This document shows positions 5,278 through 20,295 of a stretch of 64,000 nt of DNA, in pieces. This stretch comes from a virus. The stretch spans positions 5,616-69,615 of the IMG/VR virus record IMGVR_UViG_3300035696_000038. One strand, written 5' to 3'. A program made the translations under genes and the position numbers. The first letter of the stretch is position 1. Every line of letters begins with the position of its first letter. Below the pieces are notes generated by a model, which did no database searches, was not told the DNA's origin, and was given only the letters and a program-made list of their open reading frames with translations.

Positions 5278-5967
5278 ATGCGCGATGAACTGACACAAAT
5301 TGCATTGATCCTGGACAGGTCGGGCTCAATGGGCTCGATTGCAGGCGCGACCGTGGAAGGCGTAAACGCCTTTGTGGCCGAACAGCAAAAGGCTCCTGGC
5401 GAGGCGCTGCTTTACTTCGTACAGTTCGATGACGTGTATGAGCGCGTCTACGATGGCAGCATACAGAACGCGCCCCTGCTGACGCTTGCCAAGACCCTGA
5501 ACGTGCGCGAGCACCGCTTCCAGCCGCGCGGATGGACGGCGCTGCTGGACGCCATTGGCACAACCCTCGACGACGTAGGCAAACGCTTGGGCGAGATGCC
5601 GGAAGCCGAACGGCCGGGCAAGGTAGTAGTGGTGATCATGACCGACGGCATGGAGAACAAAAGCAAGAAATTTACCCGTGACCGGATTGCCGAGATGATT
5701 GCCCTGCAGCGCGACGTGTACAAGTGGCAATTCCAATTCCTGGGCGCCAATCAGGACGCGATTCAGGAAGCGGCGAAGTACAACATTCCTGCGGCCAATG
5801 CCGTGAGCTTTGCCAGCACGGCCACCGGCACAGGGAACGTGATACGGGCTATGTCGATCAATTTAACCAACTATCGCGTGAGCGGCCAAGCGCGGGCGAT
5901 GAGCTATAGCCCCGAAGATCGCGCCAAAGCCATGGCCGAGGACCGGCCAGCGCCCGGAAAGCATTAA
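5278..5967 (+). CDS. von Willebrand factor A domain protein
   Basis: MIDAS motifs ILDRSGSM, TALLDAIG and IMTDGMEN; TTGACG-N16-TATACT promoter upstream. Confidence 0.88.
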   Translation: MRDELTQIALILDRSGSMGSIAGATVEGVNAFVAEQQKAPGEALLYFVQFDDVYERVYDGSIQNAPLLTLAKTLNVREHRFQPRGWTALLDAIGTTLDDVGKRLGEMPEAERPGKVVVVIMTDGMENKSKKFTRDRIAEMIALQRDVYKWQFQFLGANQDAIQEAAKYNIPAANAVSFASTATGTGNVIRAMSINLTNYRVSGQARAMSYSPEDRAKAMAEDRPAPGKH

Positions 5968-8348: not shown

Positions 8349-8371
8349 CCCGCGGCGTTATAATTGCGCGC

Positions 8372-8845
8372 ATGGGTGGAGATATCTTGCCAATCACGCG
8401 GGACAATTTGGGACGATTCACAGGTGGCTCTTATTGGCAAGAACACAAGGGTGACACTCGCCTGCAAGGCCCAAACCACTGGAATTGGAGTGGAGATACT
8501 GTCGGTTACTCTGCCCTTCATAAGTGGGCGAGGAAACAATTTGCTGGACCAGATTACTGTTGGCTTTGCGGCAAAACCGATTGCCGCGTTGAAATGGCGT
8601 GCATCAATAAGGTCTACACGCGCTCAGGATCAACTTGGGCAAAACTTTGTGTCCGGTGCCACCACATTATCGATGGCCACCCATTTTCGCCATGGAAGGT
8701 TGAGACCCGAAGAAAAGAGGTTTATCGGTTGATTGCCGCAGGGAACACGACTAGCCAGATTGCAAAAAAGTTGGGCGTGAGCAAACGCACAATCCTTCGT
8801 GACGTTGTGGTGGTTCGGTCAAGTCATGGCGCGAGCGAAGATTAG
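8372..8845 (+). CDS. HNH-like endonuclease with C-terminal HTH, leaderless
   Basis: YSALHKW, CWLC, LCVRCHH; HTH TSQIAKKLGVSKRTILR; TATAAT-N7-ATG upstream. Confidence 0.7.
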   Translation: MGGDILPITRDNLGRFTGGSYWQEHKGDTRLQGPNHWNWSGDTVGYSALHKWARKQFAGPDYCWLCGKTDCRVEMACINKVYTRSGSTWAKLCVRCHHIIDGHPFSPWKVETRRKEVYRLIAAGNTTSQIAKKLGVSKRTILRDVVVVRSSHGASED

Positions 8846-9391: not shown

Positions 9392-9514
9392 TTCCCTGCT
9401 ACTTGGCGGCATACACGTAGCTCATCGGTAGAGCATCTCAATTGAAATGAGAGGGTAGTTGGTTCGAATCCAACCCTGATCCCGAAAGGGATTTGCCACC
9501 AGACTTGCAGGGAA
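9392..9514 (+). ncRNA. tRNA-like RNA unit 1 (D, anticodon and T arms; acceptor stem extended into the UACU/GACUU motif)
   Basis: D arm TAGCTCATCGGTAGAGCA; TCTCA-ATTGAAA-TGAGA; GTTGG-TTCGAAT-CCAAC; extra GAAA hairpin; closing stem TTCCCTGC/GCAGGGAA. Confidence 0.75.
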
Positions 9515-9522
9515 CAAACTTA

Positions 9523-9641
9523 GCCGGGTTAGCAAAGCGGAAATGGACGAGACTTTTGGGCGTGAGCCCGATACTTCGGTCATATACATGCACAGGTTCC
9601 ATAAACCTGCTACGCTGGTTCAAATCCAGCACCCGGCTCCA
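9523..9641 (+). ncRNA. tRNA-like RNA unit 2 (anticodon CAT, 3' CCA) with a ~45-nt hairpin inserted in the D-loop
   Basis: Acceptor GCCGGGT/ACCCGGC-T-CCA; CAGGT-TCCATAA-ACCTG; GCTGG-TTCAAAT-CCAGC; insert GACTT-TTGGGC-GTGA-GCCCGA-TACT. Confidence 0.8.
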
Positions 9642-9689
9642 GTTTGCGGCGCCCCGGCGATAGGTCTACCTTGCCGGGGCGCTAGAGGT

Positions 9690-9811
9690 AATGGCGGTTA
9701 CTGTACGGTTTACACGCCCTTTCAAGGCGAATGCAGGTTCGAATCCTGCCGGTCGCGCAAGCGAACGTTGCTAAATTGGCAAAAGCACTAACCGGACGAC
9801 TTACCGCCATT
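9690..9811 (+). ncRNA. Circularly permuted tRNA-like RNA unit 3 (YrlA-like)
   Basis: Closing stem ATGGCGGT/ACCGCCAT. Order is anticodon-like arm (CGCC-CTTTCAA-GGCG), T arm (GCAGG-TTCGAAT-CCTGC), GCAA-capped acceptor hairpin, D-like arm. Confidence 0.75.
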
Positions 9812-9820
9812 GAACTTCAG

Positions 9821-9939
9821 GGGGGAGAAGCAGATGAACAAACGGATGCGACTTTCTGGGCGACCGGATACTGCCTGCGTTTACATGCACAGCCTGTCCA
9901 AGGCTGCTTTAGCTGGTGAAACACCAGCCTCCTCCACCA
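9821..9939 (+). ncRNA. tRNA-like RNA unit 4 (anticodon TCC, 3' CCA) with D-loop insertion
   Basis: Acceptor GGGGGAG/CTCCTCC-A-CCA; CAGCC-TGTCCAA-GGCTG; GCTGG-TGAAACA-CCAGC; insert GACTT-TCTGG-GCGA-CCGGA-TACT. Confidence 0.75.
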
Positions 9940-10110: not shown

Positions 10111-10650
10111 ATGGCCAGCGGTGACAGGTTTTACGAACTTGACTTGCGCCATCGTGAGGCGCTGTACGGCGACATTGGCTCGATCTTGCGGATCGAGGGA
10201 CTGGTGATCGGCGGCGAAGGCGCGCAATGTGTGCTGATGCTCCCCGATACCGAATGGAAGGGATGGGAAACGCCCGTCAACCATCTTGACGAAGCGGAAT
10301 GGACCGACTGGCTGCATAGATCCGACAACCCCGAGATACTGGTGATGCCGGCCAAGGCCTTCCACCGCAAGGTGCGCCACGAAATATCGGGTGCCGTGCA
10401 GCAGAAAGTGTGGATGGCCGATGGGCTGAAATGCGTTTACTGCGGCGCGATGATGGGCAAGGTACAGTTGACCGTGGACCATTTCGTCCCGATGGAAATG
10501 GGCGGCACGAACGATACCTCGAACTACCTTTCGGCCTGCCGAAAGTGCAACAAGGATAAGGGCGCCATGGACCCACGCGACTTTTGCGAGTGGCGCAACC
10601 TGAACTATGAAGCGCTGGTGGATTACCTGGCGCGGCGGAAGGTGGCTTGA
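10111..10650 (+). CDS. HNH endonuclease domain protein
   Basis: CVYCG...LTVDHFVP...GG.ND.SNYLSACRKCNKDKG. Confidence 0.88.
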   Translation: MASGDRFYELDLRHREALYGDIGSILRIEGLVIGGEGAQCVLMLPDTEWKGWETPVNHLDEAEWTDWLHRSDNPEILVMPAKAFHRKVRHEISGAVQQKVWMADGLKCVYCGAMMGKVQLTVDHFVPMEMGGTNDTSNYLSACRKCNKDKGAMDPRDFCEWRNLNYEALVDYLARRKVA

Positions 10651-10678
10651 GCGGACTTTTGGGAAGGGGGTAAAAACA

Positions 10679-12178
10679 GTGGAAACAGGACTGACCAAGA
10701 ACCAGATTTTGTCGCAACTTTCGAAGTCGCCACACGGAGACCTGAAGGAATATATTCCGGTGGTGCAGGTGGCCGTGAAGCAGGAACCCGAGTTCCTGGC
10801 CCACCTGATTGCGTGGGACCGGCTGAACGGCCAGGTGCGCGACGCTAAAGTCGCGCTGCCGGTGATCACACTGACGGTGCCCGGATTCCCGGTAGAACTG
10901 GCCGAAAACTCTCTGGCCCACGCCGCGCTACTCGGACCGCGGGAGCTGCTGCGCGCCTGCCGCTTTGCCGGCCCGGTGGTGTTTGGACCGAACGGCAAGA
11001 TCCGCAAGATGCGCCTGCTGATCCAAAAGTGGCTGCAAGAAAAAGAGCGGGACCAGAGGGGCTGGGACCGAGTTGCCCTGCAGCACCGGCAGACGCTGAA
11101 GGAACTCTACTGCCTGGCGCACGCCAAGCCGGGAAGCGACCGAGCCAACGTGGTGATGTTTGGCCGCGCACTGGATAAAACCAAGACGCCACTGCCCAAA
11201 GGCTCGGTGTTTGAAGCGGTGGCGCGGCTGAAGGATATGTCTGCCGCCGAAGCGGCGGGCGAGATTGTGCGCCGCAAAATTCCCTTTCTGGTGGCGCACG
11301 GCGCGCTGGGCGCGAAGGCCAAGGACCCTGACCTGGTGCTGGCGCTGATTGGCCAAATGTCACCGACGGAGCTGGTGACCAATACCAAGATGCTGGAGAA
11401 GCTCGGTGTCAAAAGCAATCCGGCGCTGCGCGGCGCGTTCGAGGAGGCCATCGGCAAGGCCGCGAAGAGCAAGAAGAACGTGCTGAAGACCACGCGCGCC
11501 GCCGAAGCCATTGAAGACGAAACGCTCAAGGAAAAGCTGCGCGGCTTGCAGGACAAGCAACTGCAGGCGATGGGCGTGGAAGGGAACTGGCTGGTGCTGG
11601 GCGATAAATCTGGCTCAATGACGCGCGCCATCGAGATTGCGAAACAGATTGCCGCAACCCTGGCCAAGATGGTGAAAGGCAAGGTGTGGCTGGTCTTCTT
11701 CGACACCGCGCCGCAGACCATTGACGTGACCGGCGCCGCGCTGGACACCATCCAGAAGGCAACGCGCTACATTACGGCCAATGGCGGCACCTCAATTGGC
11801 TGCGGGCTGCAACGGATGCTCGAAGCCAAGGAAGAGATCGACGGCATCGCCATTGTTTCAGACGGCGGCGAGAACACGGTGCCCTACTTCCACCAGGTTT
11901 ACCCGCAGTATGCGGCGTTTGCCGGGAAGCAGCCGACCGTTTACCTTTACCATTGCGGCGACCGCAGCAGCGCCTTTACCGGCTTTATGCAGCGCGCGGG
12001 AATCGATATGCAGGTGTTCGAGATTTCAGAGAACATCGACTTCTATTCGCTGCCAAATTTGGTGAGCACCATGCGGACCAATCGCTACTCACTGTGTGAC
12101 GAGGTGATGGCGACGCCGCTGCTGACCATGAACGATGTATTCAAAACAGAACAGGAGGAGTTGAGCCATGCTTCTTGA
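10679..12178 (+). CDS. TROVE/Ro60-like RNA-binding protein with C-terminal vWA domain
   Basis: ~300 aa helical N-terminal region (EPEFLAHLIAW..GQVRD) followed by MIDAS motifs LVLGDKSGSM, GGTSIG and IVSDGGEN; ~500 aa; adjacent to tRNA-like RNAs. GTG start after AAGGGGG. Confidence 0.7.
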   Translation: METGLTKNQILSQLSKSPHGDLKEYIPVVQVAVKQEPEFLAHLIAWDRLNGQVRDAKVALPVITLTVPGFPVELAENSLAHAALLGPRELLRACRFAGPVVFGPNGKIRKMRLLIQKWLQEKERDQRGWDRVALQHRQTLKELYCLAHAKPGSDRANVVMFGRALDKTKTPLPKGSVFEAVARLKDMSAAEAAGEIVRRKIPFLVAHGALGAKAKDPDLVLALIGQMSPTELVTNTKMLEKLGVKSNPALRGAFEEAIGKAAKSKKNVLKTTRAAEAIEDETLKEKLRGLQDKQLQAMGVEGNWLVLGDKSGSMTRAIEIAKQIAATLAKMVKGKVWLVFFDTAPQTIDVTGAALDTIQKATRYITANGGTSIGCGLQRMLEAKEEIDGIAIVSDGGENTVPYFHQVYPQYAAFAGKQPTVYLYHCGDRSSAFTGFMQRAGIDMQVFEISENIDFYSLPNLVSTMRTNRYSLCDEVMATPLLTMNDVFKTEQEELSHAS

Positions 12179-12464
12179 AGCTTACCGAAACTTCAACAAG
12201 GAACGGATGGATCTGGACGAGTTGGTGGAGTTGGCCGCGTTTGGCCGGATGCTGCGCCAGGAGTACGAGGCGCAGAAGGTGGACGAACCGGAGTTTGTGG
12301 GAATCCAACTTACCGGCTTGCGCCGCGAGATCCAATCGCGCCTGGATGACCAGCGCGAAAAGCGCCGCCGGCAGATCAAGACCCAACTGCAGGGCTTGAA
12401 GACCACCGCCGAGCGCCGCACCGAGCTGGAAGAGGAACTGAAGAACTTGGAAATCGTGCCGTGA
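12168..12464 (+). CDS. Small coiled-coil protein translationally coupled to the TROVE-vWA gene
   Basis: AGGAGG RBS; overlaps the upstream stop. Confidence 0.75.
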   Translation: MLLEAYRNFNKERMDLDELVELAAFGRMLRQEYEAQKVDEPEFVGIQLTGLRREIQSRLDDQREKRRRQIKTQLQGLKTTAERRTELEEELKNLEIVP

Positions 12465-12467
12465 AGA

Positions 12468-12543
12468 CAGTTCTCAGCCGCCAGTTGTCAGTTTTCAGCA
12501 AAAAGCCCGGGGCTGAAAACTGACGACTGGGAACTGACAACTG
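12468..12543. repeat. Inverted heptamer repeats around AAAAAGCCCGGG
   Basis: CAGTTCT CAGCCGC CAGTTGT CAGTTTT CAG ... CTGAAAA CTGACGA CTGGGAA CTGACAA CTG; near-identical layout at 37725-37815. Confidence 0.75.
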
Positions 12544-12559
12544 CGCTATAATTGCGGCC

Positions 12560-12781
12560 ATGACGAACCTGCAGCTAGCCCTGTCGATCGGTATTCCTTC
12601 CATCTTGGTTCTGGTGGGAATCTTTTTGAATAACGCCCGTTTCGGCGCTATCGACGGGCGGTTCAGCGCGATCGACGCACGCCTGGATCGGATGCAAGCC
12701 GATCTTTCGCAGTTTTACCGCGACCTGGGCCGGCACGATGCGGAGATTGCGAACCTGAAGGACCGCCAGCGCAACGCTTAG
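12560..12781 (+). CDS. Small TM plus coiled-coil protein, leaderless
   Basis: TATAAT-TGCGGCC-ATG; MTNLQLALSIGIPSILVLVGIFLNNARF. Confidence 0.75.
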   Translation: MTNLQLALSIGIPSILVLVGIFLNNARFGAIDGRFSAIDARLDRMQADLSQFYRDLGRHDAEIANLKDRQRNA

Positions 12782-12898
12782 CTTCCGGCTCTGCGCGTTG
12801 CCACCCGCGAATTTGCCAAATTGGGTCTTCACCAGAAGTCCAGACTCTGGACTGAAAACTGACAACCGAAAACCGACAACTGAACTATAATTGCGCTC

Positions 12899-13441
12899 AT
12901 GAATTGGCGCGAAGAATGCCGCAACCTGCACTGGGAAGCAATTGCAGCGCTGAAACGGGATGGGCGCATCCCTTTTTTGCTGCGAGCCTATGACCAAGAT
13001 GGAAAAATTAGCGCACCAGATCTGGCGCTCAAAGACGGGCTGGACGACATAAGCCGAACCTTGCTGCGCACCGTAGCGGCAGCTTTGTTTCGCGCCGTCG
13101 ATCAACCTGCGGCATTGACCCAAAGCGATGCCATGGAAGTGAGCCAGCCGAAGTTCTGTGCTTATTTCAACCTTCCCAAGACCTTGCGGGCAGAGCAATA
13201 CATGGAGGAGTACAACCGCATAGTGAGCAGTCAATTTGGCGGCACAATGGCTAACTTGCCCAGGCAACTTTGGTCGGAGGCGATTATTACGCGCTTGAAG
13301 GGCCCCAAAATCGAGCCGGTCCTTTTTCATACGGCTTACCAGAGGGAGGAAGAGGCCGGGATCGTCTTTGGAAAAACCAGGGAGTTGGACGTGGGCTTTG
13401 ACTACCTGCTGCCAGACTGGTGGGACGCGATGAAGCAGTGA
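12899..13441 (+). CDS. Hypothetical protein, leaderless
   Basis: TATAAT-TGCGCTC-ATG, preceded by heptamer repeats and a palindrome copy. Confidence 0.7.
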   Translation: MNWREECRNLHWEAIAALKRDGRIPFLLRAYDQDGKISAPDLALKDGLDDISRTLLRTVAAALFRAVDQPAALTQSDAMEVSQPKFCAYFNLPKTLRAEQYMEEYNRIVSSQFGGTMANLPRQLWSEAIITRLKGPKIEPVLFHTAYQREEEAGIVFGKTRELDVGFDYLLPDWWDAMKQ

Positions 13442-13502
13442 ACGGCACAAATTTGCGCGCATTCGGGAGAAGGTGTATAGTCTCTTGCTTTGGGAGAAGA
13501 AC

Positions 13503-14267
13503 ATGACCAAATTGCACGAATTGCTGGCTGTGCAGAGCAGCTTGAGCGGGCAGGCATCGAAGGTGCGCCAGGAACTGGCCGTGACCTTCGAGAAAAAGCG
13601 CCACCTCTTCGAGGAGCGGCGCAAGAGCTTCCGATCAAACGAAGAAGGAGTCCCGGTAGCGGTGGAGGAGCAGCAGGACATCCAGACCACCGTGGCCAGC
13701 GAGATTGAGTGGATCTCAAACCACCTTGCCAAAGCCGTGGACGTGGCCTACCAGGTTGACTTGGCCAACACCGAAGCCAAAGCCGACGTGGTGACCGAGG
13801 ACGGAGAGACGCTGGTAAAAGATTTGCCGGCGACGACGCTGCTGCAACTGGAAAAGCGGGTGGCGGAGTGGAAGGAACTGATTGTCGCCATTCCCACGCT
13901 CGACCCCGCCAAGGGCTTTAAGCCAGACGAGATGCGCGGCTTGGGCTTTTGGAAAGCGAGGGATGTCACCAAGCCGCGCACCAAGAAAGAAAAGAAACCG
14001 CTGGTGCTTTACCCAGCCACCGACAAACACCCCGCGCAAACCCAAGTGCTCGACGTGGACACCGTTACTGGAACCATCTTGGAGCAAGAATGGAGCGCAT
14101 TGATCACGCCGACAATGAAAGCCGAACTGCTGGACCGCGTGGAAACGCTGTACAGAGCGGTGACCAAGGCGCGTTCGAAGGCCAACGACCACTCTGTCGA
14201 CACCGCCGGCAAGAAGATTGGCGAAACGCTGCTGGACTTCGTGTTTAAGCCGCTGACCGCGAGTTGA
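13503..14267 (+). CDS. Conserved coiled-coil protein of unknown function (MTKLHELLAV...ATDKHPAQ family)
   Basis: GGGAGA RBS. The ATDKHPAQ motif resembles a family recalled from phages and actinobacteria (not verified by search). Confidence 0.8.
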   Translation: MTKLHELLAVQSSLSGQASKVRQELAVTFEKKRHLFEERRKSFRSNEEGVPVAVEEQQDIQTTVASEIEWISNHLAKAVDVAYQVDLANTEAKADVVTEDGETLVKDLPATTLLQLEKRVAEWKELIVAIPTLDPAKGFKPDEMRGLGFWKARDVTKPRTKKEKKPLVLYPATDKHPAQTQVLDVDTVTGTILEQEWSALITPTMKAELLDRVETLYRAVTKARSKANDHSVDTAGKKIGETLLDFVFKPLTAS

Positions 14268-14276
14268 GGAGGCGTT

Positions 14277-14543
14277 GTGCGACTGCCGGAGCTGAACGCC
14301 GAAGAGTTCGAGACGCTGTTGATTATGTGCGGCTATGCTACGGGAGCGGCGGCTGAAAAGGGTGATAGTTTTTTTGTCGATCGCTTTTTACGCCTGGTGA
14401 ACAAATTGAACGAATGCAACCCGCAATTCGTCCCCTACGAAACTCGGGGCGATGCAGGAGAAGATCGACGGGCTGAAGCAAGATGCCCGCGCAAGTTGGG
14501 TGGGGCCGAAAGGCTCGATCCAGGCTCAGACTTAAACTCATGA
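14277..14543 (+). CDS. Small hypothetical protein; 3' part overlaps the structured RNA
   Basis: GAGGAGG RBS before GTG. Confidence 0.45.
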   Translation: MRLPELNAEEFETLLIMCGYATGAAAEKGDSFFVDRFLRLVNKLNECNPQFVPYETRGDAGEDRRAEARCPRKLGGAERLDPGSDLNS

Positions 14544-14623
14544 CTCAAACTCAACCCGGCACCGCAAAGCCGGTTCAGATTCTCACCCAAAGGCTTATCG
14601 CGGTAAAACGATAGCAAGGCAGG

Positions 14624-14722
14624 CTGAGCCAACCAAACACGAGTCGCCGGTTCAAATCCGGCAGGGCCGCCCAAAAAACACCGGCCCTTAGCTCAGCGGT
14701 AGAGCACGTGGATCAGGCTCAG
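14624..14722 (+). ncRNA. YrlA-like circularly permuted tRNA mimic
   Basis: T arm GCCGG-TTCAAAT-CCGGC, then closed acceptor hairpin AGGGCCG/CGGCCCT, then D arm TAGCTCAGCGGTAGAGCA; enclosed by CACG/CGTG and CTGAGCC/GGCTCAG. Confidence 0.8.
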
Positions 14723-14758
14723 GGCTCTGGGTTGCCAAGCAAGGCGTGGCCGCACAAC

Positions 14759-14831
14759 CATCGACTAGCTCAGAGGTAGAGCATACGACGGCAAATCGTA
14801 GATCATCGGTTCAAATCCGGTGTCGATAACA
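14759..14831 (+). tRNA. Atypical or pseudo tRNA (anticodon GCA, Cys-like; G33; no CCA)
   Basis: ATCGAC/GTCGAT acceptor; TAGCTCAGAGGTAGAGCA; TACGA-CGGCAAA-TCGTA; ATCGG-TTCAAAT-CCGGT. Confidence 0.6.
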
Positions 14832-14833
14832 TA

Positions 14834-14863
14834 GGGGCCGTTCGCGCGGTAGCGGGCGGCCCC
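14834..14863. repeat. REP-like GC hairpin GGGGCCGTTCGCGCGGTAGCGGGCGGCCCC (copies at 15296-15314 and inverted at 16904-16934)
   Basis: 19-bp identical direct repeat at 14844 and 15296; reverse-complement copy after the AAA ATPase gene. Confidence 0.7.
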
Positions 14864-14906
14864 ACCTATTTTGATGCGGAGTTCCTCCGCACTCTAGGAA
14901 TGCGGT

Positions 14907-15296
14907 ATGGGCTACACGGGCGAGAAAAAGCGGACATATCAGCGCCAATGGATCAAGGCGAGGCGAGACGTATGGATCAAGGAACATGGACCATGCGTCG
15001 ACTGCGGCGGCTGGGAGGAACTTGAGATTGACCATCGGGATCGGTCAACAAAAGAGAGATTTATTAGTCGGATATGGTCATATTCTGCCGCAAAGAGGAT
15101 GGAAGAGTTGGAGAAGTGCGTTGTCCGCTGCACCGCCTGTCATCGCAAGAAGACACACAAAGAGACCACCCGCTCCGAGGCCGAAAGACACGGACGGTAC
15201 ACAACCTACAACAAAGACAAATGCCGTTGCGCGGCATGTGTGGCGGCAGCGAATGAACATAAACGGGAATACCGCACAAAGGGCGGTGCGCATTAG
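14907..15296 (+). CDS. HNH homing-type endonuclease
   Basis: CVDCG..LEIDHRD...ELEKCVVRCTACHRKKT; C-terminal HG..TTY..KCRCAAC. Confidence 0.85.
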   Translation: MGYTGEKKRTYQRQWIKARRDVWIKEHGPCVDCGGWEELEIDHRDRSTKERFISRIWSYSAAKRMEELEKCVVRCTACHRKKTHKETTRSEAERHGRYTTYNKDKCRCAACVAAANEHKREYRTKGGAH

Positions 15297-15394: not shown

Positions 15395-16879
15395 ATGGGG
15401 CTGAAGATCAACGAAGCAGAGAAGCCGCAAAAGACCGTGGTTGCCGAAATAACACGCGCTGGCGAGGCGATCACCATACCTACCGGGGTGACGATTGCCG
15501 AGGCAATTGAGGTTCTGGCCGCGAAGCAAAAAGAAGAAGAACAGGTTGTAGCACTGTCGGAAGAGTTTGACGCGTTTATCTGGGATGGTTGCTTTGCGCT
15601 GGCCAACGCCCTGGATAAGAAGTTTGGTTGGTACAGGCAGATGTCCACGCCGGGATCGTTCTTCTCGCCCAACCAGTCACCGCAACTGCGCAGCGTGAAG
15701 GCGGGGCCTGACGAGACCGTGCAGGTGCCGTGGGGCCGGTTTCTGATTCCTGGAATTCCGGTTGGCGATGGCTATATGTCCACTGCGTATTTTCAGAACC
15801 CCACGGGCATGATCTGCTTCAGGCTCGCGGCAGAGATCCGCAGGAAGCACAGCGACCTGTTCAAGGAACTGTGCAAGGAAATCAACCTGCAACTGAAGAC
15901 AGCAAGCCTCTACAAGGCCAAGGCGATTACGATCCAGTTCCACGACGAGGACGGTGAGAAGATCGAGTTTCCCGAACCCGTGTTCCCAAAGATCGCCGCC
16001 GTGGACCCGAGCCAACTGATCTTTTCGCGCGAGATCGAAGCCTCGCTCAACGCCAACCTTTACACGCCGCTGACCAAGACCGCGCTGGTGCGCGAGGCCG
16101 GAATTCCGCTGAAGCGCGGCGTGCTGCTGGCCGGCCCCTACGGCACAGGCAAGACGTTGATTGCCACCGTCACCGCGGGACTGGCGACGAAGAACGGATG
16201 GACGTTTCTGTTTTGTCAGAGCGCGGCAGACTTTCCCGATTGCGTCCGCTTCGCCTCAAAGTACCAGCCCGCCGTGGTTTTTTGCGAGGATATTGACCGC
16301 GTGACGGATGGGGACCGCGACGAACAGATGGACGAGATTTTGAACGTGATCGACGGTGTGGATTCAAAATCGAGCGAGATCATGCTGGTGCTGACCACCA
16401 ATGAAGTTGAAAACATCCACCAGGGAATGCTGCGGCCCGGCAGACTGGATGCGGTGGTTGCCGTGGAGCGGCCGGATGCCGAGGCCGTGGAGCGGCTGAT
16501 CCGCTATTATGCGGGCACACTGCTTGAAAAAGAGGAAGACCTTGCCGAGGCCGGAGAACTGCTGGCCGGAGCGACGCCGGCGGTTATCCGCGAGGTTGTG
16601 GAGCGTGCGAAACTGACGGCGCTGGCACAGAACGAGAGTCTGCGCTTGACCGAAAACGCATTGAAGGTTGCCGCCAAAACGATGCGCGTGCAACTCGACC
16701 TGCTCAACAGGGAAGCAAAACGAGACCCTCAGCCGATGGAGGTTTTTGGCCGCGTTCTCGCGGAGCACCTTATAGCGGGAAGCAAGGCCGCGCATGTTGC
16801 CGCTCCACAGGTCTTTCGTAGTCTACAGAAGCCCGAGAATGGATATGCGCCGAAGTCTAACGGCGCGGCGGAAGCCTGA
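15395..16879 (+). CDS. AAA+ ATPase
   Basis: Walker A GPYGTGKT, Walker B VFCEDID, SRH LTTN...MLRPGRLD; AAGGAGG RBS. Confidence 0.92.
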   Translation: MGLKINEAEKPQKTVVAEITRAGEAITIPTGVTIAEAIEVLAAKQKEEEQVVALSEEFDAFIWDGCFALANALDKKFGWYRQMSTPGSFFSPNQSPQLRSVKAGPDETVQVPWGRFLIPGIPVGDGYMSTAYFQNPTGMICFRLAAEIRRKHSDLFKELCKEINLQLKTASLYKAKAITIQFHDEDGEKIEFPEPVFPKIAAVDPSQLIFSREIEASLNANLYTPLTKTALVREAGIPLKRGVLLAGPYGTGKTLIATVTAGLATKNGWTFLFCQSAADFPDCVRFASKYQPAVVFCEDIDRVTDGDRDEQMDEILNVIDGVDSKSSEIMLVLTTNEVENIHQGMLRPGRLDAVVAVERPDAEAVERLIRYYAGTLLEKEEDLAEAGELLAGATPAVIREVVERAKLTALAQNESLRLTENALKVAAKTMRVQLDLLNREAKRDPQPMEVFGRVLAEHLIAGSKAAHVAAPQVFRSLQKPENGYAPKSNGAAEA

Positions 16880-17568: not shown

Positions 17569-18026
17569 ATGGGAAAGATCAAAATGCCGTGGAATATGGA
17601 CGAAGACAAGCTGCTCTGCCTGATGGCGCTGAACGACGGCGTGGCCCTGAAACTGAGTTCGCAGGCCGGAAAGCATATTGGCGGGGATTTATTTTGGAGA
17701 ACCGCACCACCCGCGCCGTGCACGCCCTGTTCCGGTTCAAATATAAGAACGGCAACCGGAATTGGTTCAGTATGCAACCCAAGCAGAAGGGCGACCGGGA
17801 AACGACGATGCACGCGCTGCGCTGCAGCCTGGAAGACAATATCAAGCTGGCCATGAAAGTTTTTGGCATTCCACCCGAAGTTGCTGCCCAGGCGATTGAA
17901 TGCTTTTATCCGCCTGACGACGAGGGAGATCCTGGAAAGACCGTTATTTGGCTGGAGCAGCGCAACTTGATTGAAATCCATGTACAACCCGAGGAAGCAG
18001 AAGATGATCGAAAAAGTAACCTATGA
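17569..18026 (+). pseudogene. Frameshifted paralog of 52864-53367 immediately upstream of the Cas12 gene
   Basis: The N-part KLLCLMALND..SSQAGK and the C-part AYWRGFILEN...PPDDEGD..WLEQRNLI lie in different frames, switching at GGAAAGCA (~17668-17675). Both align to the intact paralog. Confidence 0.7.
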
Positions 18027-20295
18027 CGGCGCGACCGTGCGCGTCCACCTGGCTTCGATTTCATTGAAGGCAACCAAGGCGTTTACCCACGGCAGCTTCA
18101 TCTTCGACAAAGAGACGCAGCGGCTGACCATGGGCCAACTGGCTCCGGTGCCCATACCAGCCGAGTTGGAGCTGAGCGAAGGCGCACAGCTCAACTTTCA
18201 ACTGGTGGCGCCCGACGGCGCCCTGCGCAAACAAACCCGCTGTGGCGTGCTCAAAGCAAATGAGAAACAACCATCGATCTTGCGTATCGCCGGCATGGCC
18301 AAGACGGCGCGACGCTACCCCGCCGAAGAAGGCTGGCGCAACGAAATCTATAAATACCGCGCCTGCTTTGCCCACGAGGGTCTGAAGACCGACGCCGTGC
18401 TGGGTGAGCCTCTCAACTTGCCCGAATGGCTCAAGGGTTGCGTTGCGCGGCAAAAAGCGCTGTGGAACCGCCTGGCCTGGCTTTGCCGCGATGCGCGGCG
18501 TAAATGCTCCCCGGCGCCGACCGAGGCGATTGCGGAGCTTGTTAAAGGCACGATTTTGCCCATGATCGATGCCTTCAATTTCAACCTTGGCCGCGCCAGA
18601 GCCAAGGAGAAGATGCGCCACCCGGCCAAGCTGAAAGTGGAGATGCCGGGGCTGGACGGAGTTTGGAGCTTTATTGGAGAACTGCGCCATAGAATCGAAA
18701 AGGGCCAAGCCGTGCCGGAAAAACTGCTTGAAGAGGTGGTGGCCTTTGCCGAACAATACAAGGCCGAGTACACGCCAATCAACGAGTTTCTGAACAACTT
18801 TGCCGCCATTGCCGAGAGAGAAGCTAGGGCGCTGGGGCTGCGGCACTTTGAGGTGCGTCCCACCGTGAGCGCCTTCAAAGCCGTGCTGGACCGGCGCAAG
18901 ACCACCAACGCGCCATGGTCGGAGGGTTGGCCCTTGATCAAGTATCCAGACCGGCCAAAAGCCGCCGATTGGGGTGTTTACTTCTACTTCAACAAGGCGG
19001 GCGTGGACGCGAGCCTGCTGGAGACGGGACCCGGCGTGCCCGGCTTGCGCTTTTCGCCGCCGGTACCGCCCGAAAAGACCGGACACAAAGGCATGACGGG
19101 CGCGGCGGCCAAACGCGCGCTGCGCGAAGCGGAAATTTCAATTACCGGAGACGACGGTGAGAAAGGCGAACGATGGTCGCTGCGCTTTGGCGTCCTTCAG
19201 CATCGTCCGCTGCCGCCAAACTCGCACATCAAGGAATGGAAACTCCTGTTTCAGAACGATGCCCTGTGGCTTTGCCTGGTGGTTGAGCTGCAACGGCCCC
19301 CAGCCACACGTACCCCGCAAACGGCTGGCTTGGATATTGGCTGGCGGCGCACGGAAGACGGCATCCGCTTTGGCACCCTGTATGAATCCGCCACCAAGAC
19401 CGTGCGGGAATTGACGCTCGACCTGACACGATCACCCGGAGACCACAAGAACCGCGTGCCCTTCCGGATCGACTTGGGGCCCGATAGCTGGACGCGTACG
19501 GTTTTTGCTCAACTGGAACGCGGCGAGACCGAGAACCCGCGCCGCGGCCCCTGGGACAGCACCGTGCTTTGGCGTGCCTATAAGGACTGGAAGCCGAAGG
19601 ACGGAATCCCCGGCATTTTGGAGATTCGCACCACGCTACAGGCCCGTAACGACTACCTGAAGGAGACCGCCAAGATTTTGCTGCGCAAGCACCTGGGGGA
19701 CAAGACTCCGGCCTGGCTCGAAAAAGCTGGCCGCAGGGGTTTGTTCAAGATGCAGACAGAGTTTTTGGAAGACGCGCGGGTGCAGGAGATTTTGACCCCA
19801 TGGCGCGAAGAAGACGGCAGGATTGCCCGCTTTCTAGCGGTGTTTGCCGCCAACGCAGCCCGGCGCATTGAATACGGCCAAGCGCAAGTGGCGCACGACA
19901 TCTGCCGGTACCTTGTACAGAAAAACGTGAAGGTGCTGGTGGTTGAAAAGAACTTTCTAAGCAAGCTGGCGCAGCACCACGACAACGAAGACCCAGTGAG
20001 CTTGAAGCGCAGCCAGAAGTACCGCCAGTTTGCGGCGGCGGGAAGATTTGTGACCATCGTGAAGAACACGACTGTAAAGTATGGGATCGTGGTTGACGAG
20101 ATCGATGCAGCCAACACCACACGTATGTGCCACTATTGCGATTTTTTGAACCCGTCGACGGAGAAGGAATGCTACAACTGCGGGGGTTGCGGCCGACAAG
20201 TGAAACAGGATGAAAACTCGGGGATCAATCTGGTGCGGTTTGCGGCAGACCCGGAACTGGCAAAGAAAGCGCAGGAGGGGGGACGCGAAGCCTAG
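18004..20295 (+). CDS. cas12: Type V CRISPR effector (TnpB/Cas12 family, Cas12m/V-U1-like), ~763 aa
   Basis: WED/REC start IYKYRA...KALWNRL; RuvC-I TAGLDIGWRRTEDGIRFG; RuvC-II VLVVEK; Zn finger TTRMCHYC...CGGC; RuvC-III QDENSGINL; abuts cas4. Alternative starts at 17971 and 17980. Confidence 0.85.
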   Translation: MIEKVTYDGATVRVHLASISLKATKAFTHGSFIFDKETQRLTMGQLAPVPIPAELELSEGAQLNFQLVAPDGALRKQTRCGVLKANEKQPSILRIAGMAKTARRYPAEEGWRNEIYKYRACFAHEGLKTDAVLGEPLNLPEWLKGCVARQKALWNRLAWLCRDARRKCSPAPTEAIAELVKGTILPMIDAFNFNLGRARAKEKMRHPAKLKVEMPGLDGVWSFIGELRHRIEKGQAVPEKLLEEVVAFAEQYKAEYTPINEFLNNFAAIAEREARALGLRHFEVRPTVSAFKAVLDRRKTTNAPWSEGWPLIKYPDRPKAADWGVYFYFNKAGVDASLLETGPGVPGLRFSPPVPPEKTGHKGMTGAAAKRALREAEISITGDDGEKGERWSLRFGVLQHRPLPPNSHIKEWKLLFQNDALWLCLVVELQRPPATRTPQTAGLDIGWRRTEDGIRFGTLYESATKTVRELTLDLTRSPGDHKNRVPFRIDLGPDSWTRTVFAQLERGETENPRRGPWDSTVLWRAYKDWKPKDGIPGILEIRTTLQARNDYLKETAKILLRKHLGDKTPAWLEKAGRRGLFKMQTEFLEDARVQEILTPWREEDGRIARFLAVFAANAARRIEYGQAQVAHDICRYLVQKNVKVLVVEKNFLSKLAQHHDNEDPVSLKRSQKYRQFAAAGRFVTIVKNTTVKYGIVVDEIDAANTTRMCHYCDFLNPSTEKECYNCGGCGRQVKQDENSGINLVRFAADPELAKKAQEGGREA

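Follow-up and report, generated by a model that had tools for sequence, protein, structure and literature searches.

Bacterial Y RNAs have so far been defined by their link to the protein Ro60 (Rsr). As reported in PMC4201824, YrlA RNAs (Rfam RF02553) consist of a T-arm, a closed acceptor-like stem, a D-arm and an anticodon-stem-like helix that runs into a longer stem, and are encoded within 4 kb of the Ro gene on the same strand. The DNA analyzed here (hereafter, the window) is a 64,000-nucleotide (nt) stretch of the IMG/VR virus record IMGVR_UViG_3300035696_000038 (positions 5,616 to 69,615), a 69.6-kb record with a completeness of ~52% (CheckV). At ~14496-14872 on the + strand, downstream of a gene for a protein of family DUF7873, it encodes a structured RNA of about 380 nt with the same series of elements as YrlA; here, the YrlA-like tRNA mimic has a different, exclusive partner gene and additional domains. 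We consider it probable (about 60%) that the DUF7873 gene and its own structured RNA constitute a widespread two-part module that forms a Ro-independent, YrlA-like ribonucleoprotein (RNP), protein-RNA binding and function being proposed by analogy.

Unlike YrlA, the window RNA is linked to DUF7873 rather than to Ro60/TROVE and scores below the Rfam gathering cut-off. DUF7873-linked RNAs are also longer (~250-450 nt, compared with ~100-130 nt for YrlA) and add a hexamer-repeat domain closed by a helix (P1), a conserved terminal hairpin, an optional tRNA and, in many cases, a second tRNA-like module; hexamers were missing from the three canonical YrlAs inspected. The order of tRNA parts in the window module (T-arm, 3′ acceptor strand with CCA, linker, 5′ acceptor strand, D-like arm) is the permutation found in two-piece transfer-messenger RNA (tmRNA). 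However, ARAGORN found neither a tmRNA nor a tag reading frame in the window, SmpB is not the linked protein, and the G3:U70 pair is missing because the acceptor has G3-C70. Regularly spaced single-stranded repeats are paired with a self-associating protein in CsrB/RsmZ (CsrA) and in the triplets of the trp leader (TRAP). That likeness is by analogy only: the repeats considered here follow A-R-N-Y-U-N at a 6-nt period instead of GGA or GAG/UAG, and the protein family is unrelated. GOLLD and ROOL RNAs adjoin tRNA genes. Like the window RNA, they are large structured RNAs frequent in phages (PMC12286853). They have been reported as RNA-only assemblies, whereas the window RNA has a protein-coding partner and tRNA-like modules and gave no match to either family in Rfam at E ≤ 5.

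At Rfam gathering thresholds, the window gave three matches, all of tRNA type. At E ≤ 5, the interval 12000-15200 gave YrlA, tRNA and miRNA rows and no GOLLD, ROOL, tmRNA or other family. No description of the DUF7873-RNA pair was found in Rfam 15 or in the literature searched, where the name 'DUF7873' was also absent; the published YrlA lists (Chen et al., 2014) were not compared for overlap. A 2026 preprint on three tRNA-mimic families covers skipping-rope, DUF2693-FD and salivarius-1, and not the DUF7873-linked RNA.

Linkage of the RNA to DUF7873 and not to Ro

Related DUF7873 loci were gathered from viruses (27 distinct loci), bacterial genomes (80 loci, from at least 590 relatives in the species genomes scanned) and metagenomes (80 loci). 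Reading of the sequence downstream of DUF7873 in these loci revealed the same RNA architecture. The 5′ part contains P1, a hairpin of variable length and runs of hexamers (AGGCUC, AGACUY, AAGCUN), followed by a small hairpin in the clade of the window or by a first permuted tRNA-like module in most bacterial loci. Next are further hexamers, the 3′ strand of P1 and an additional AGGCU hexamer, and the 3′ part comprises a stem with a permuted tRNA-like module, sometimes a tRNA, and a long terminal hairpin. This architecture was kept from ~29% to 92% protein identity and across phyla.

In 91 of 108 loci, a strict descriptor of the permuted tRNA (T-arm, 7/7 acceptor pairs, a linker of 4-74 nt, D-arm) had a same-strand match within 900 nt downstream of DUF7873, compared with 9/108 upstream and 4/108 on the reverse complement. 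A covariance model (R1), built from 56 modules, found the RNA beside DUF7873 at E ≤ 2e-8 in 91 of 99 other phage and bacterial loci and scored 74.4 bits in the window; duplicates (L006, L010, L012, L014, L025) and loci with short downstream sequence (L030, L053, L086) were excluded from this search. None of the metagenome loci was in the R1 seed. Among the 57 with at least 450 nt downstream, the strict descriptor was matched in 52 and R1 in 55 (≥57 bits), L153 giving a weak match (34.7 bits) and L170 nothing. When R1 was run genome-wide on five bacterial genomes carrying the pair, the top match (61-75 bits) was beside DUF7873 in all five.

None of the other protein-coding neighbors is conserved, the largest cluster not overlapping DUF7873 occurring in 5 of 108 loci. 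Neighbors in bacteria look cellular and include a class II aminoacyl-tRNA synthetase, a protein kinase, a permease and a histidine kinase. DUF7873 is also encoded in 75 GenBank phage records, in each case annotated as hypothetical; the cultured phages include those of Gordonia, Rhizobium, Vibrio, Klebsiella/Serratia and Arthrobacter. R1 also matched within the unannotated gap downstream of the DUF7873 gene in Rhizobium phage RHph_Y65 (56.5 bits) and in Klebsiella phage KpLz-2_45 (41.2 and 47.9 bits). The linkage of gene and RNA is very strong, and agrees with the first-pass annotation, made from the letters of the window, in which a separate protein-RNA module had been proposed.

That annotation had also offered a second possibility, a further Y-like RNA of a Ro protein encoded upstream. 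Stated in full, the RNA would be an extra YrlA-type Y RNA serving the Ro-like protein at 10607-12178, with DUF7873 an unrelated neighbor. The YrlA likeness itself held: 14611-14741 matched the full Rfam model (37.0 bits, E 9e-6), T-arm, closed acceptor-like stem and D-arm included. The 523-aa protein gave weak vWA matches only, but in the ESM Atlas it fell with TROVE/Ro60 clusters (features 0.95-0.96, TM 0.61-0.70); because the likeness is one of fold and features only, it is called Ro-like rather than a confirmed TROVE member, and it appears from these models to be a very divergent phage Ro-like protein. Its gene lies 2.4 kb upstream of the RNA on the same strand, within the 4 kb reported for YrlA (PMC4201824).

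The evidence on linkage speaks against service to Ro. The YrlA score falls short of the 69-bit gathering level. In YrlA, the terminal stem built from the 5′ and 3′ ends bears the helix to which Ro60 binds; the module has a terminal stem (AGCAA...UUGCC), which aligns to the YrlA model with non-canonical pairs, and it lacks the CCGGUGCGAAG-type stem of the TROVE-linked YrlAs L191 and L192. Relatives likewise remained sub-threshold (28.7-42.1 bits), with full-model matches in L003, L005 and 5 of 10 bacterial loci scanned and a partial match in L009 (positions 24-84 of 114). Pfam TROVE (PF05731) had no match to 10607-12178 at E ≤ 0.01 and none in the record at E ≤ 10. A homologue of the Ro-like protein was found within 4 kb of DUF7873 in 0 of 27 related viral loci, so that proximity of ~4 kb to a Ro60/TROVE gene, which holds in the window through the Ro-like gene, does not hold for the family of the RNA. 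The five bacterial genomes divide into three that encode TROVE on another contig or ~330 kb away and two that lack it; the three have separate YrlAs ~1-1.5 kb from TROVE, with lower R1 scores (48.8, 38.5 and 33.5 bits). A better-placed candidate exists in the window as well, at 9691-9813, where the terminal stem fits the YrlA consensus. Service to the Ro-like protein is therefore quite unlikely; the linkage of the RNA is to DUF7873 and not to Ro, and genome comparison makes DUF7873, rather than Ro60, its evolutionary partner.

The element at 9691-9813, ~0.8 kb upstream of the Ro-like gene, scored 24.7 bits against YrlA with a terminal stem near consensus, and from its sequence seems a likelier Ro partner than 14611-14741. 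It belongs to a cluster of tRNA-like elements (9417-9475, 9523-9638, 9691-9813 and about 9830-9900) in which one member is a tRNA core devoid of acceptor ends and another a tRNA whose D-loop has a 47-nt insertion; a second copy of an insert containing GACUU/UACU is present as well. R1 called overlapping stretches there, 9600-9718 (31.1 bits) and 9719-9810 (31.6 bits). The cluster from 9417 to ~9900 probably contains the Ro-like protein's own RNA partners.

Architecture and covariation of the RNA

The following features, all on the + strand, were assigned to the gene and the RNA in the window (MFE, minimum free energy).

13503-14267: DUF7873 gene, 254 aa (Pfam PF25283, 219.2 bits, E 9e-65)
14277-14543: small open reading frame (ORF) of 88 aa between the DUF7873 gene and the RNA (tblastn)
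14496-14590: 5′ hexamer-repeat domain closed by P1, U14496-G14502 pairing with C14584-A14590
14503-14516: hairpin 1, 5 base pairs (bp; G14503-C14507 with G14512-C14516), GAAA (GNRA) loop
14522-14552: hexamer array 1, AGGCUC AGACUU AAACUC AUGACUC AAACUC (from sequence)
14556-14573: hairpin 2, CCGGC, 8-nt loop, GCCGG (from sequence)
14574-14596: further hexamers, UUCAGAUUCUC 5′ of the P1 3′ strand and AAGGCUU right after it
14596-14613: hairpin 3, UAUCG, loop, CGAUA (in the MFE fold)
14611-14741: YrlA-like permuted tRNA module with flanking stems (Rfam RF02553 and R1)
14638-14641 with 14707-14710: 4-bp anticodon-stem-like helix of the module
14646-14662: T-arm of the module
14663-14669: acceptor 3′ strand of the module, then CCCA (C-CCA, 14670-14673)
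14682-14688: acceptor 5′ strand of the module, after an 8-nt linker
14691-14705: D-arm of the module
14712-14722: AUCAGGCUCAG motif of the module
14759-14830: tRNA or tRNA-like element, anticodon GCA (ARAGORN; Rfam tRNA)
14834-14872: terminal 12-bp hairpin with a GCGGUA loop, then a U-tract, resembling an intrinsic terminator

The elements that the first-pass annotation had read from the letters were all recovered: the GNRA hairpin (GGGCC-GAAA-GGCTC), the hexamer run as spelled there, the two further hairpins, the permuted tRNA mimic and a tRNA-like fold without an encoded CCA. One correction concerns the start of the RNA, which is at ~14496 rather than at the DUF7873 stop codon; part of 14277-14543 is a small ORF whose conservation is sporadic. 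The last ~16 codons of this ORF (from 14496) overlap P1, hairpin 1 and hexamers and thus translate conserved RNA. Homologues of the ORF in tblastn were confined to L114 (53% over 66 aa, E 5e-17) and L185 (44% over 95 aa, E 1e-15), with a match in 0 of 27 viral loci, and it had no Pfam, PHROGs, PADLOC or NCBIfam family.

The main support for the RNA is comparative, consisting of conservation, covariation and a lag-6 periodicity over more than 100 related loci. RNAalifold on 45 sequences returned 20 pairs, 19 of them with compensatory changes and among them the 4-bp anticodon-stem-like helix, which the descriptor had not required. On 61 distinct non-seed sequences, module pairing was seen in 95.6% of cells, compared with 66.4 ± 1.0% after shuffling (reached by 0/500 shuffles) and 38-49% in slid controls, with double changes at all 20 pairs and a covariation score of 0.753 versus 0.211; as the non-seed alignment was fitted to the R1 model, this test favors the structure. 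P1 was paired in 88.3% of cells (39 sequences) versus 79.9% in shuffles (0/500), a test that is biased because the helix finder set the ends of the alignment. One P1 pair varies between U-A (14), C-G (12) and G-C (3). Compensatory P1 strands in relatives include UUCGGGU/ACCCGA, CUGGGG/CCCCAG, GGUCUAGU/ACUAGACU and CGGGUCU/AGACCCG, and in more distant loci the strands are wholly different yet complementary. The conserved RNA structure that had been predicted downstream of DUF7873 homologues was thus found, together with covariation, P1 and hexamer periodicity, and the Rfam scan added a full-length but sub-threshold YrlA match, only tRNA reaching gathering level.

Folding energies of the window RNA were also computed. 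The MFE fold of the core yields all three tRNA-like arms, yet is as stable as shuffled sequence (z -1.25). The fold of the whole 383 nt gave z -2.61, and 0 of 100 shuffles were equally stable. Hairpin 1 varies in length among relatives, and L011, L015, L117 and L147 carry longer, compensated hairpins instead; the position of hairpin 2 is taken by the first permuted tRNA-like module in more distant relatives; hairpin 3 is kept in the close relatives L002-L004, L109-L124 and L185.

The hexamer repeats (consensus A-R-N-Y-U-N) are a conserved, periodic, non-coding feature. Outside the modules, sequence identity in 85 non-redundant loci was 0.324 at lag 6, 0.293 at lag 12 and 0.286 at lag 18, whereas lags other than 12, 13, 14 and 18 gave 0.243-0.276. 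Control sequence upstream of genes showed a codon pattern, unlike the hexamer region. AGGCT was counted 46 times against 9.3 expected, and an AGGCU-type hexamer directly 3′ of the P1 3′ strand is present in most relatives inspected. Translation of the hexamer run as coding sequence was considered and rejected, as there is no lag-3 signal in these loci and the ORF is missing in most relatives. Judged against the rest of the window, the run stands out only moderately (6 ARNYTN in 84 nt versus a mean of 1.09, with 95 of 63,917 such segments reaching 6, the top 0.15%). In the window, 9 ARNYTN were counted in the 160 nt upstream; the corresponding counts at the three Ro-linked canonical YrlAs were 0, 0 and 4.

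The element at 14759-14830 was called tRNA-Cys(GCA) by ARAGORN and scored 50.6 bits against the Rfam tRNA model (gathering score 29). It has the cloverleaf and score of a canonical elongator tRNA, but lacks U33 and a paired 1:72: there is a C1·A72 mismatch, the anticodon loop is CGGCAAA (G33 for U33), and CCA is not encoded. From its sequence, a pseudo-tRNA reading is plausible. The closest relative, L185, has a tRNA with U33 and anticodon UCU, and the homologous position in the clade of the window is occupied by tRNA-Thr(UGU/CGU) or tRNA-Arg(UCU). In 12 of 60 bacterial loci, the last module is followed at ~30-70 nt (at ~190 nt in L075) by a tRNA; the identities vary and include Gly, Val, Thr, Asn, Ile, Phe, Leu and Glu, and one tRNA has a 2-nt anticodon.

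Modules of this kind might be decayed or rearranged remnants of tRNA genes in a tRNA island, without function. Tandem tRNA arrays do give weak R1 matches (≤35 bits), and the window tRNA is aberrant. Compensatory covariation in all four module helices and in P1 contradicts such decay, as does the retention of the architecture over the range of protein identities and phyla given above, and this explanation is extremely unlikely.

A further explanation would make the RNA an element acting in cis at the 3′ end of the DUF7873 or tRNA transcript (RNase P/RNase Z signals, a stabilizer or a terminator), with no dedicated RNP and with the hexamers recognized by a general host factor or nuclease. In its favor, P1 and the DUF7873 stop codon overlap in several relatives, the locus is often in a tRNA island with a tRNA next downstream, and the 3′ end is formed by a terminator-like hairpin. 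In 87 of 168 distinct modules (57/71 viral or metagenomic, 30/97 bacterial), the acceptor 3′ strand runs directly into N-CCA, as expected of tRNA-type processing. However, an RNA of 250-450 nt with one or two tRNA mimics, periodic repeats and a conserved loop motif greatly exceeds a processing signal in complexity. In addition, the link to one protein family persists across phyla while all other neighbors change, and the RNA is retained where a small ORF or a tRNA separates it from the gene. We regard a purely cis-acting role as unlikely. A terminal hairpin of at least 8 bp was present in 92 of 121 loci; the pattern N-G-G-N-U-A(Y) recurs in the loop, with the variants GCGGUA, UGGGUA(Y), AGGCUAC and UGGACAU across phyla, a recurrence that suggests more than a terminator.

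The DUF7873 gene and the downstream RNA are probably cotranscribed. In L137, L138, L140, L144 and L029, the DUF7873 stop codon is inside the P1 5′ strand (...UUUUCGGGUAA), and translation termination and P1 formation may therefore be coupled.

The DUF7873 protein and the proposed ribonucleoprotein

The PF25283 match of the 254-aa protein is full-length (residues 1-249 to profile positions 1-243 of 244) and above the curated cut-off of 27 bits; PHROGs, PADLOC and NCBIfam gave no match. The family is large and uniform, with 1571 proteins at E ≤ 1e-3 (90% clusters) and 2655 clusters at 50% identity among 1.84 billion representatives; the 150 best matches listed are single-domain proteins of 197-273 aa, mostly 240-260 aa. 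The AlphaFold 2 model (predicted local distance difference test, pLDDT, 87.7) has long helices alternating with beta-hairpins. The first-pass annotation had proposed an oligomeric protein, and structure prediction supports self-association: a homodimer was predicted in 3/3 runs with an interaction prediction score from aligned errors (ipSAE) of 0.70 (best control 0.00, partner pLDDT 90), the runs sharing at least 97% of contacts. Of 30 solved homodimers, 20 attained this ipSAE mark, as did 1 of 23 proteins solved as single chains. The predicted dimer is intertwined and leaves a conserved basic beta-hairpin (RTKK...PATDKHPAQTQ) free, its tip residues 160-187 being outside the interface. Searches of PDB sequences (phmmer and profile) found nothing, Pur-alpha rows in the fold search were weak (probability ≤0.18), and ESM Atlas entries without PF25283 reached only 0.80-0.81.

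We propose that the P1-closed domain displays the hexamer arrays single-stranded and that DUF7873 dimers would bind the RNA, most plausibly at these arrays through the free basic beta-hairpins. The tRNA-like module(s) would offer a tRNA shape to tRNA-recognizing factors, candidates being RNase P, the CCA-adding enzyme, modification enzymes, and tRNA-directed nucleases or synthetases, and the acceptor loop may be a site of processing. Such an RNP could work like Ro60-YrlA, with the RNA as adaptor or tether and DUF7873 in place of Ro60. A more specific and tentative proposal, possible but less than even in our judgment, is that DUF7873 and its RNA represent an unrecognized, widespread bacterial and phage RNP class, a Ro-independent sister of Ro60-Y RNA, in which dimers of a new fold assemble on 6-nt repeats and one to three RNase P-processed, CCA-ending tRNA mimics couple the particle to tRNA processing, aminoacylation or surveillance.

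Phage tRNA islands counter anticodon nucleases. The tRNA-like modules might accordingly be decoys or substitutes against tRNA-targeting defense or attack nucleases, with DUF7873 as an accessory or chaperone. Phage pairs do sit among tRNA genes, and the anticodon of the 3′ tRNA changes among close relatives (Thr UGU, Thr CGU, Arg UCU, 'Cys' GCA). Yet the pair is common in bacterial chromosomes beside ordinary cellular genes (class II aminoacyl-tRNA synthetase, kinase, permease), PADLOC gave no match, and the modules have no anticodon loop to cut; a decoy role is very unlikely.

Several observations weigh against a DUF7873 RNP. P1 was not drawn in the single-sequence MFE fold of the whole RNA, its alignment test has the bias given above, and the R1 seeds were chosen by a pairing descriptor. 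A crude criterion detected hexamer arrays in only 68 of 85 loci, and the motif is degenerate and, in its IUPAC form, self-complementary. R1 had no match in 8 of 99 DUF7873 loci, mostly of Bacteroidota (L060, L066, L077, L081, L087, L091, L096, L100). The RNA is upstream of the gene in L104 and on the other strand in L052 (in L051, it is 1.4 kb downstream). R1-type modules were found away from DUF7873 in L009 (7643-7737, 57.5 bits), L019 (7978-8135, 43.4 bits) and G005 (several matches of 40-51 bits); those of L009 and L019 lie several kb from DUF7873, and such modules therefore also occur alone. No recognizable RNA-binding fold was found in DUF7873: Foldseek gave nothing at E ≤ 1e-3 in PDB and BFVD, and the best VIA wide match was 3kdq_A (Z 8.8, root-mean-square deviation 7.7), of unknown function. 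The Ro-like gene is at a YrlA-typical distance and orientation. Finally, the sequencing runs carrying the sequence were two DNA runs (peat metagenomes) and no RNA run. The extra modules of L009 and L019 are in phage tRNA islands, and L009 has a further R1-type module at 8369-8468 (31.8 bits).

If the DUF7873 pair forms an RNP, a large family of unassigned domains would gain a function, hundreds of unannotated gaps beside tRNA genes would be explained, Rfam and genome annotation would gain a new RNA family, and it would become possible to test, in tractable hosts, why adaptor RNAs of tRNA shape exist in bacteria and phages.

Neighboring genes and other features of the window

The miRNA rows in the Rfam search correspond to a near-perfect long hairpin at 12474-12537, which was mistaken for miRNA precursors. 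In the regions 12474-12537 and 12840-12898 and downstream in L002-L004, a recurring CUGAAAACUGACAAC...CTATAATTGCG motif stops a few bases short of an ATG. It resembles a phage promoter whose starts are leaderless or nearly so; a simple sigma-70 scan found no promoter there.

A phage-borne Cas12/TnpB-like gene is present at 17971-20295. Its 774-aa product has a Cas12f/Cas12u1-like C-terminal region (PADLOC E 4.6e-25), a Pfam Cas12f1-like TNB domain and a weak NCBIfam TnpB match, and is kept at 56-61% identity in L002, L003, L004 and L010. The possibility that the structured RNA is the guide RNA of this gene was rejected, as no more than 4 of 27 viral loci with the RNA also have this gene.

Directly after the RNA, an HNH endonuclease is encoded at 14907-15296 (phrog_4234), followed by an AAA ATPase at 15395-16879 (phrog_10440), which has weak IetA/TRIP13-like PADLOC matches.

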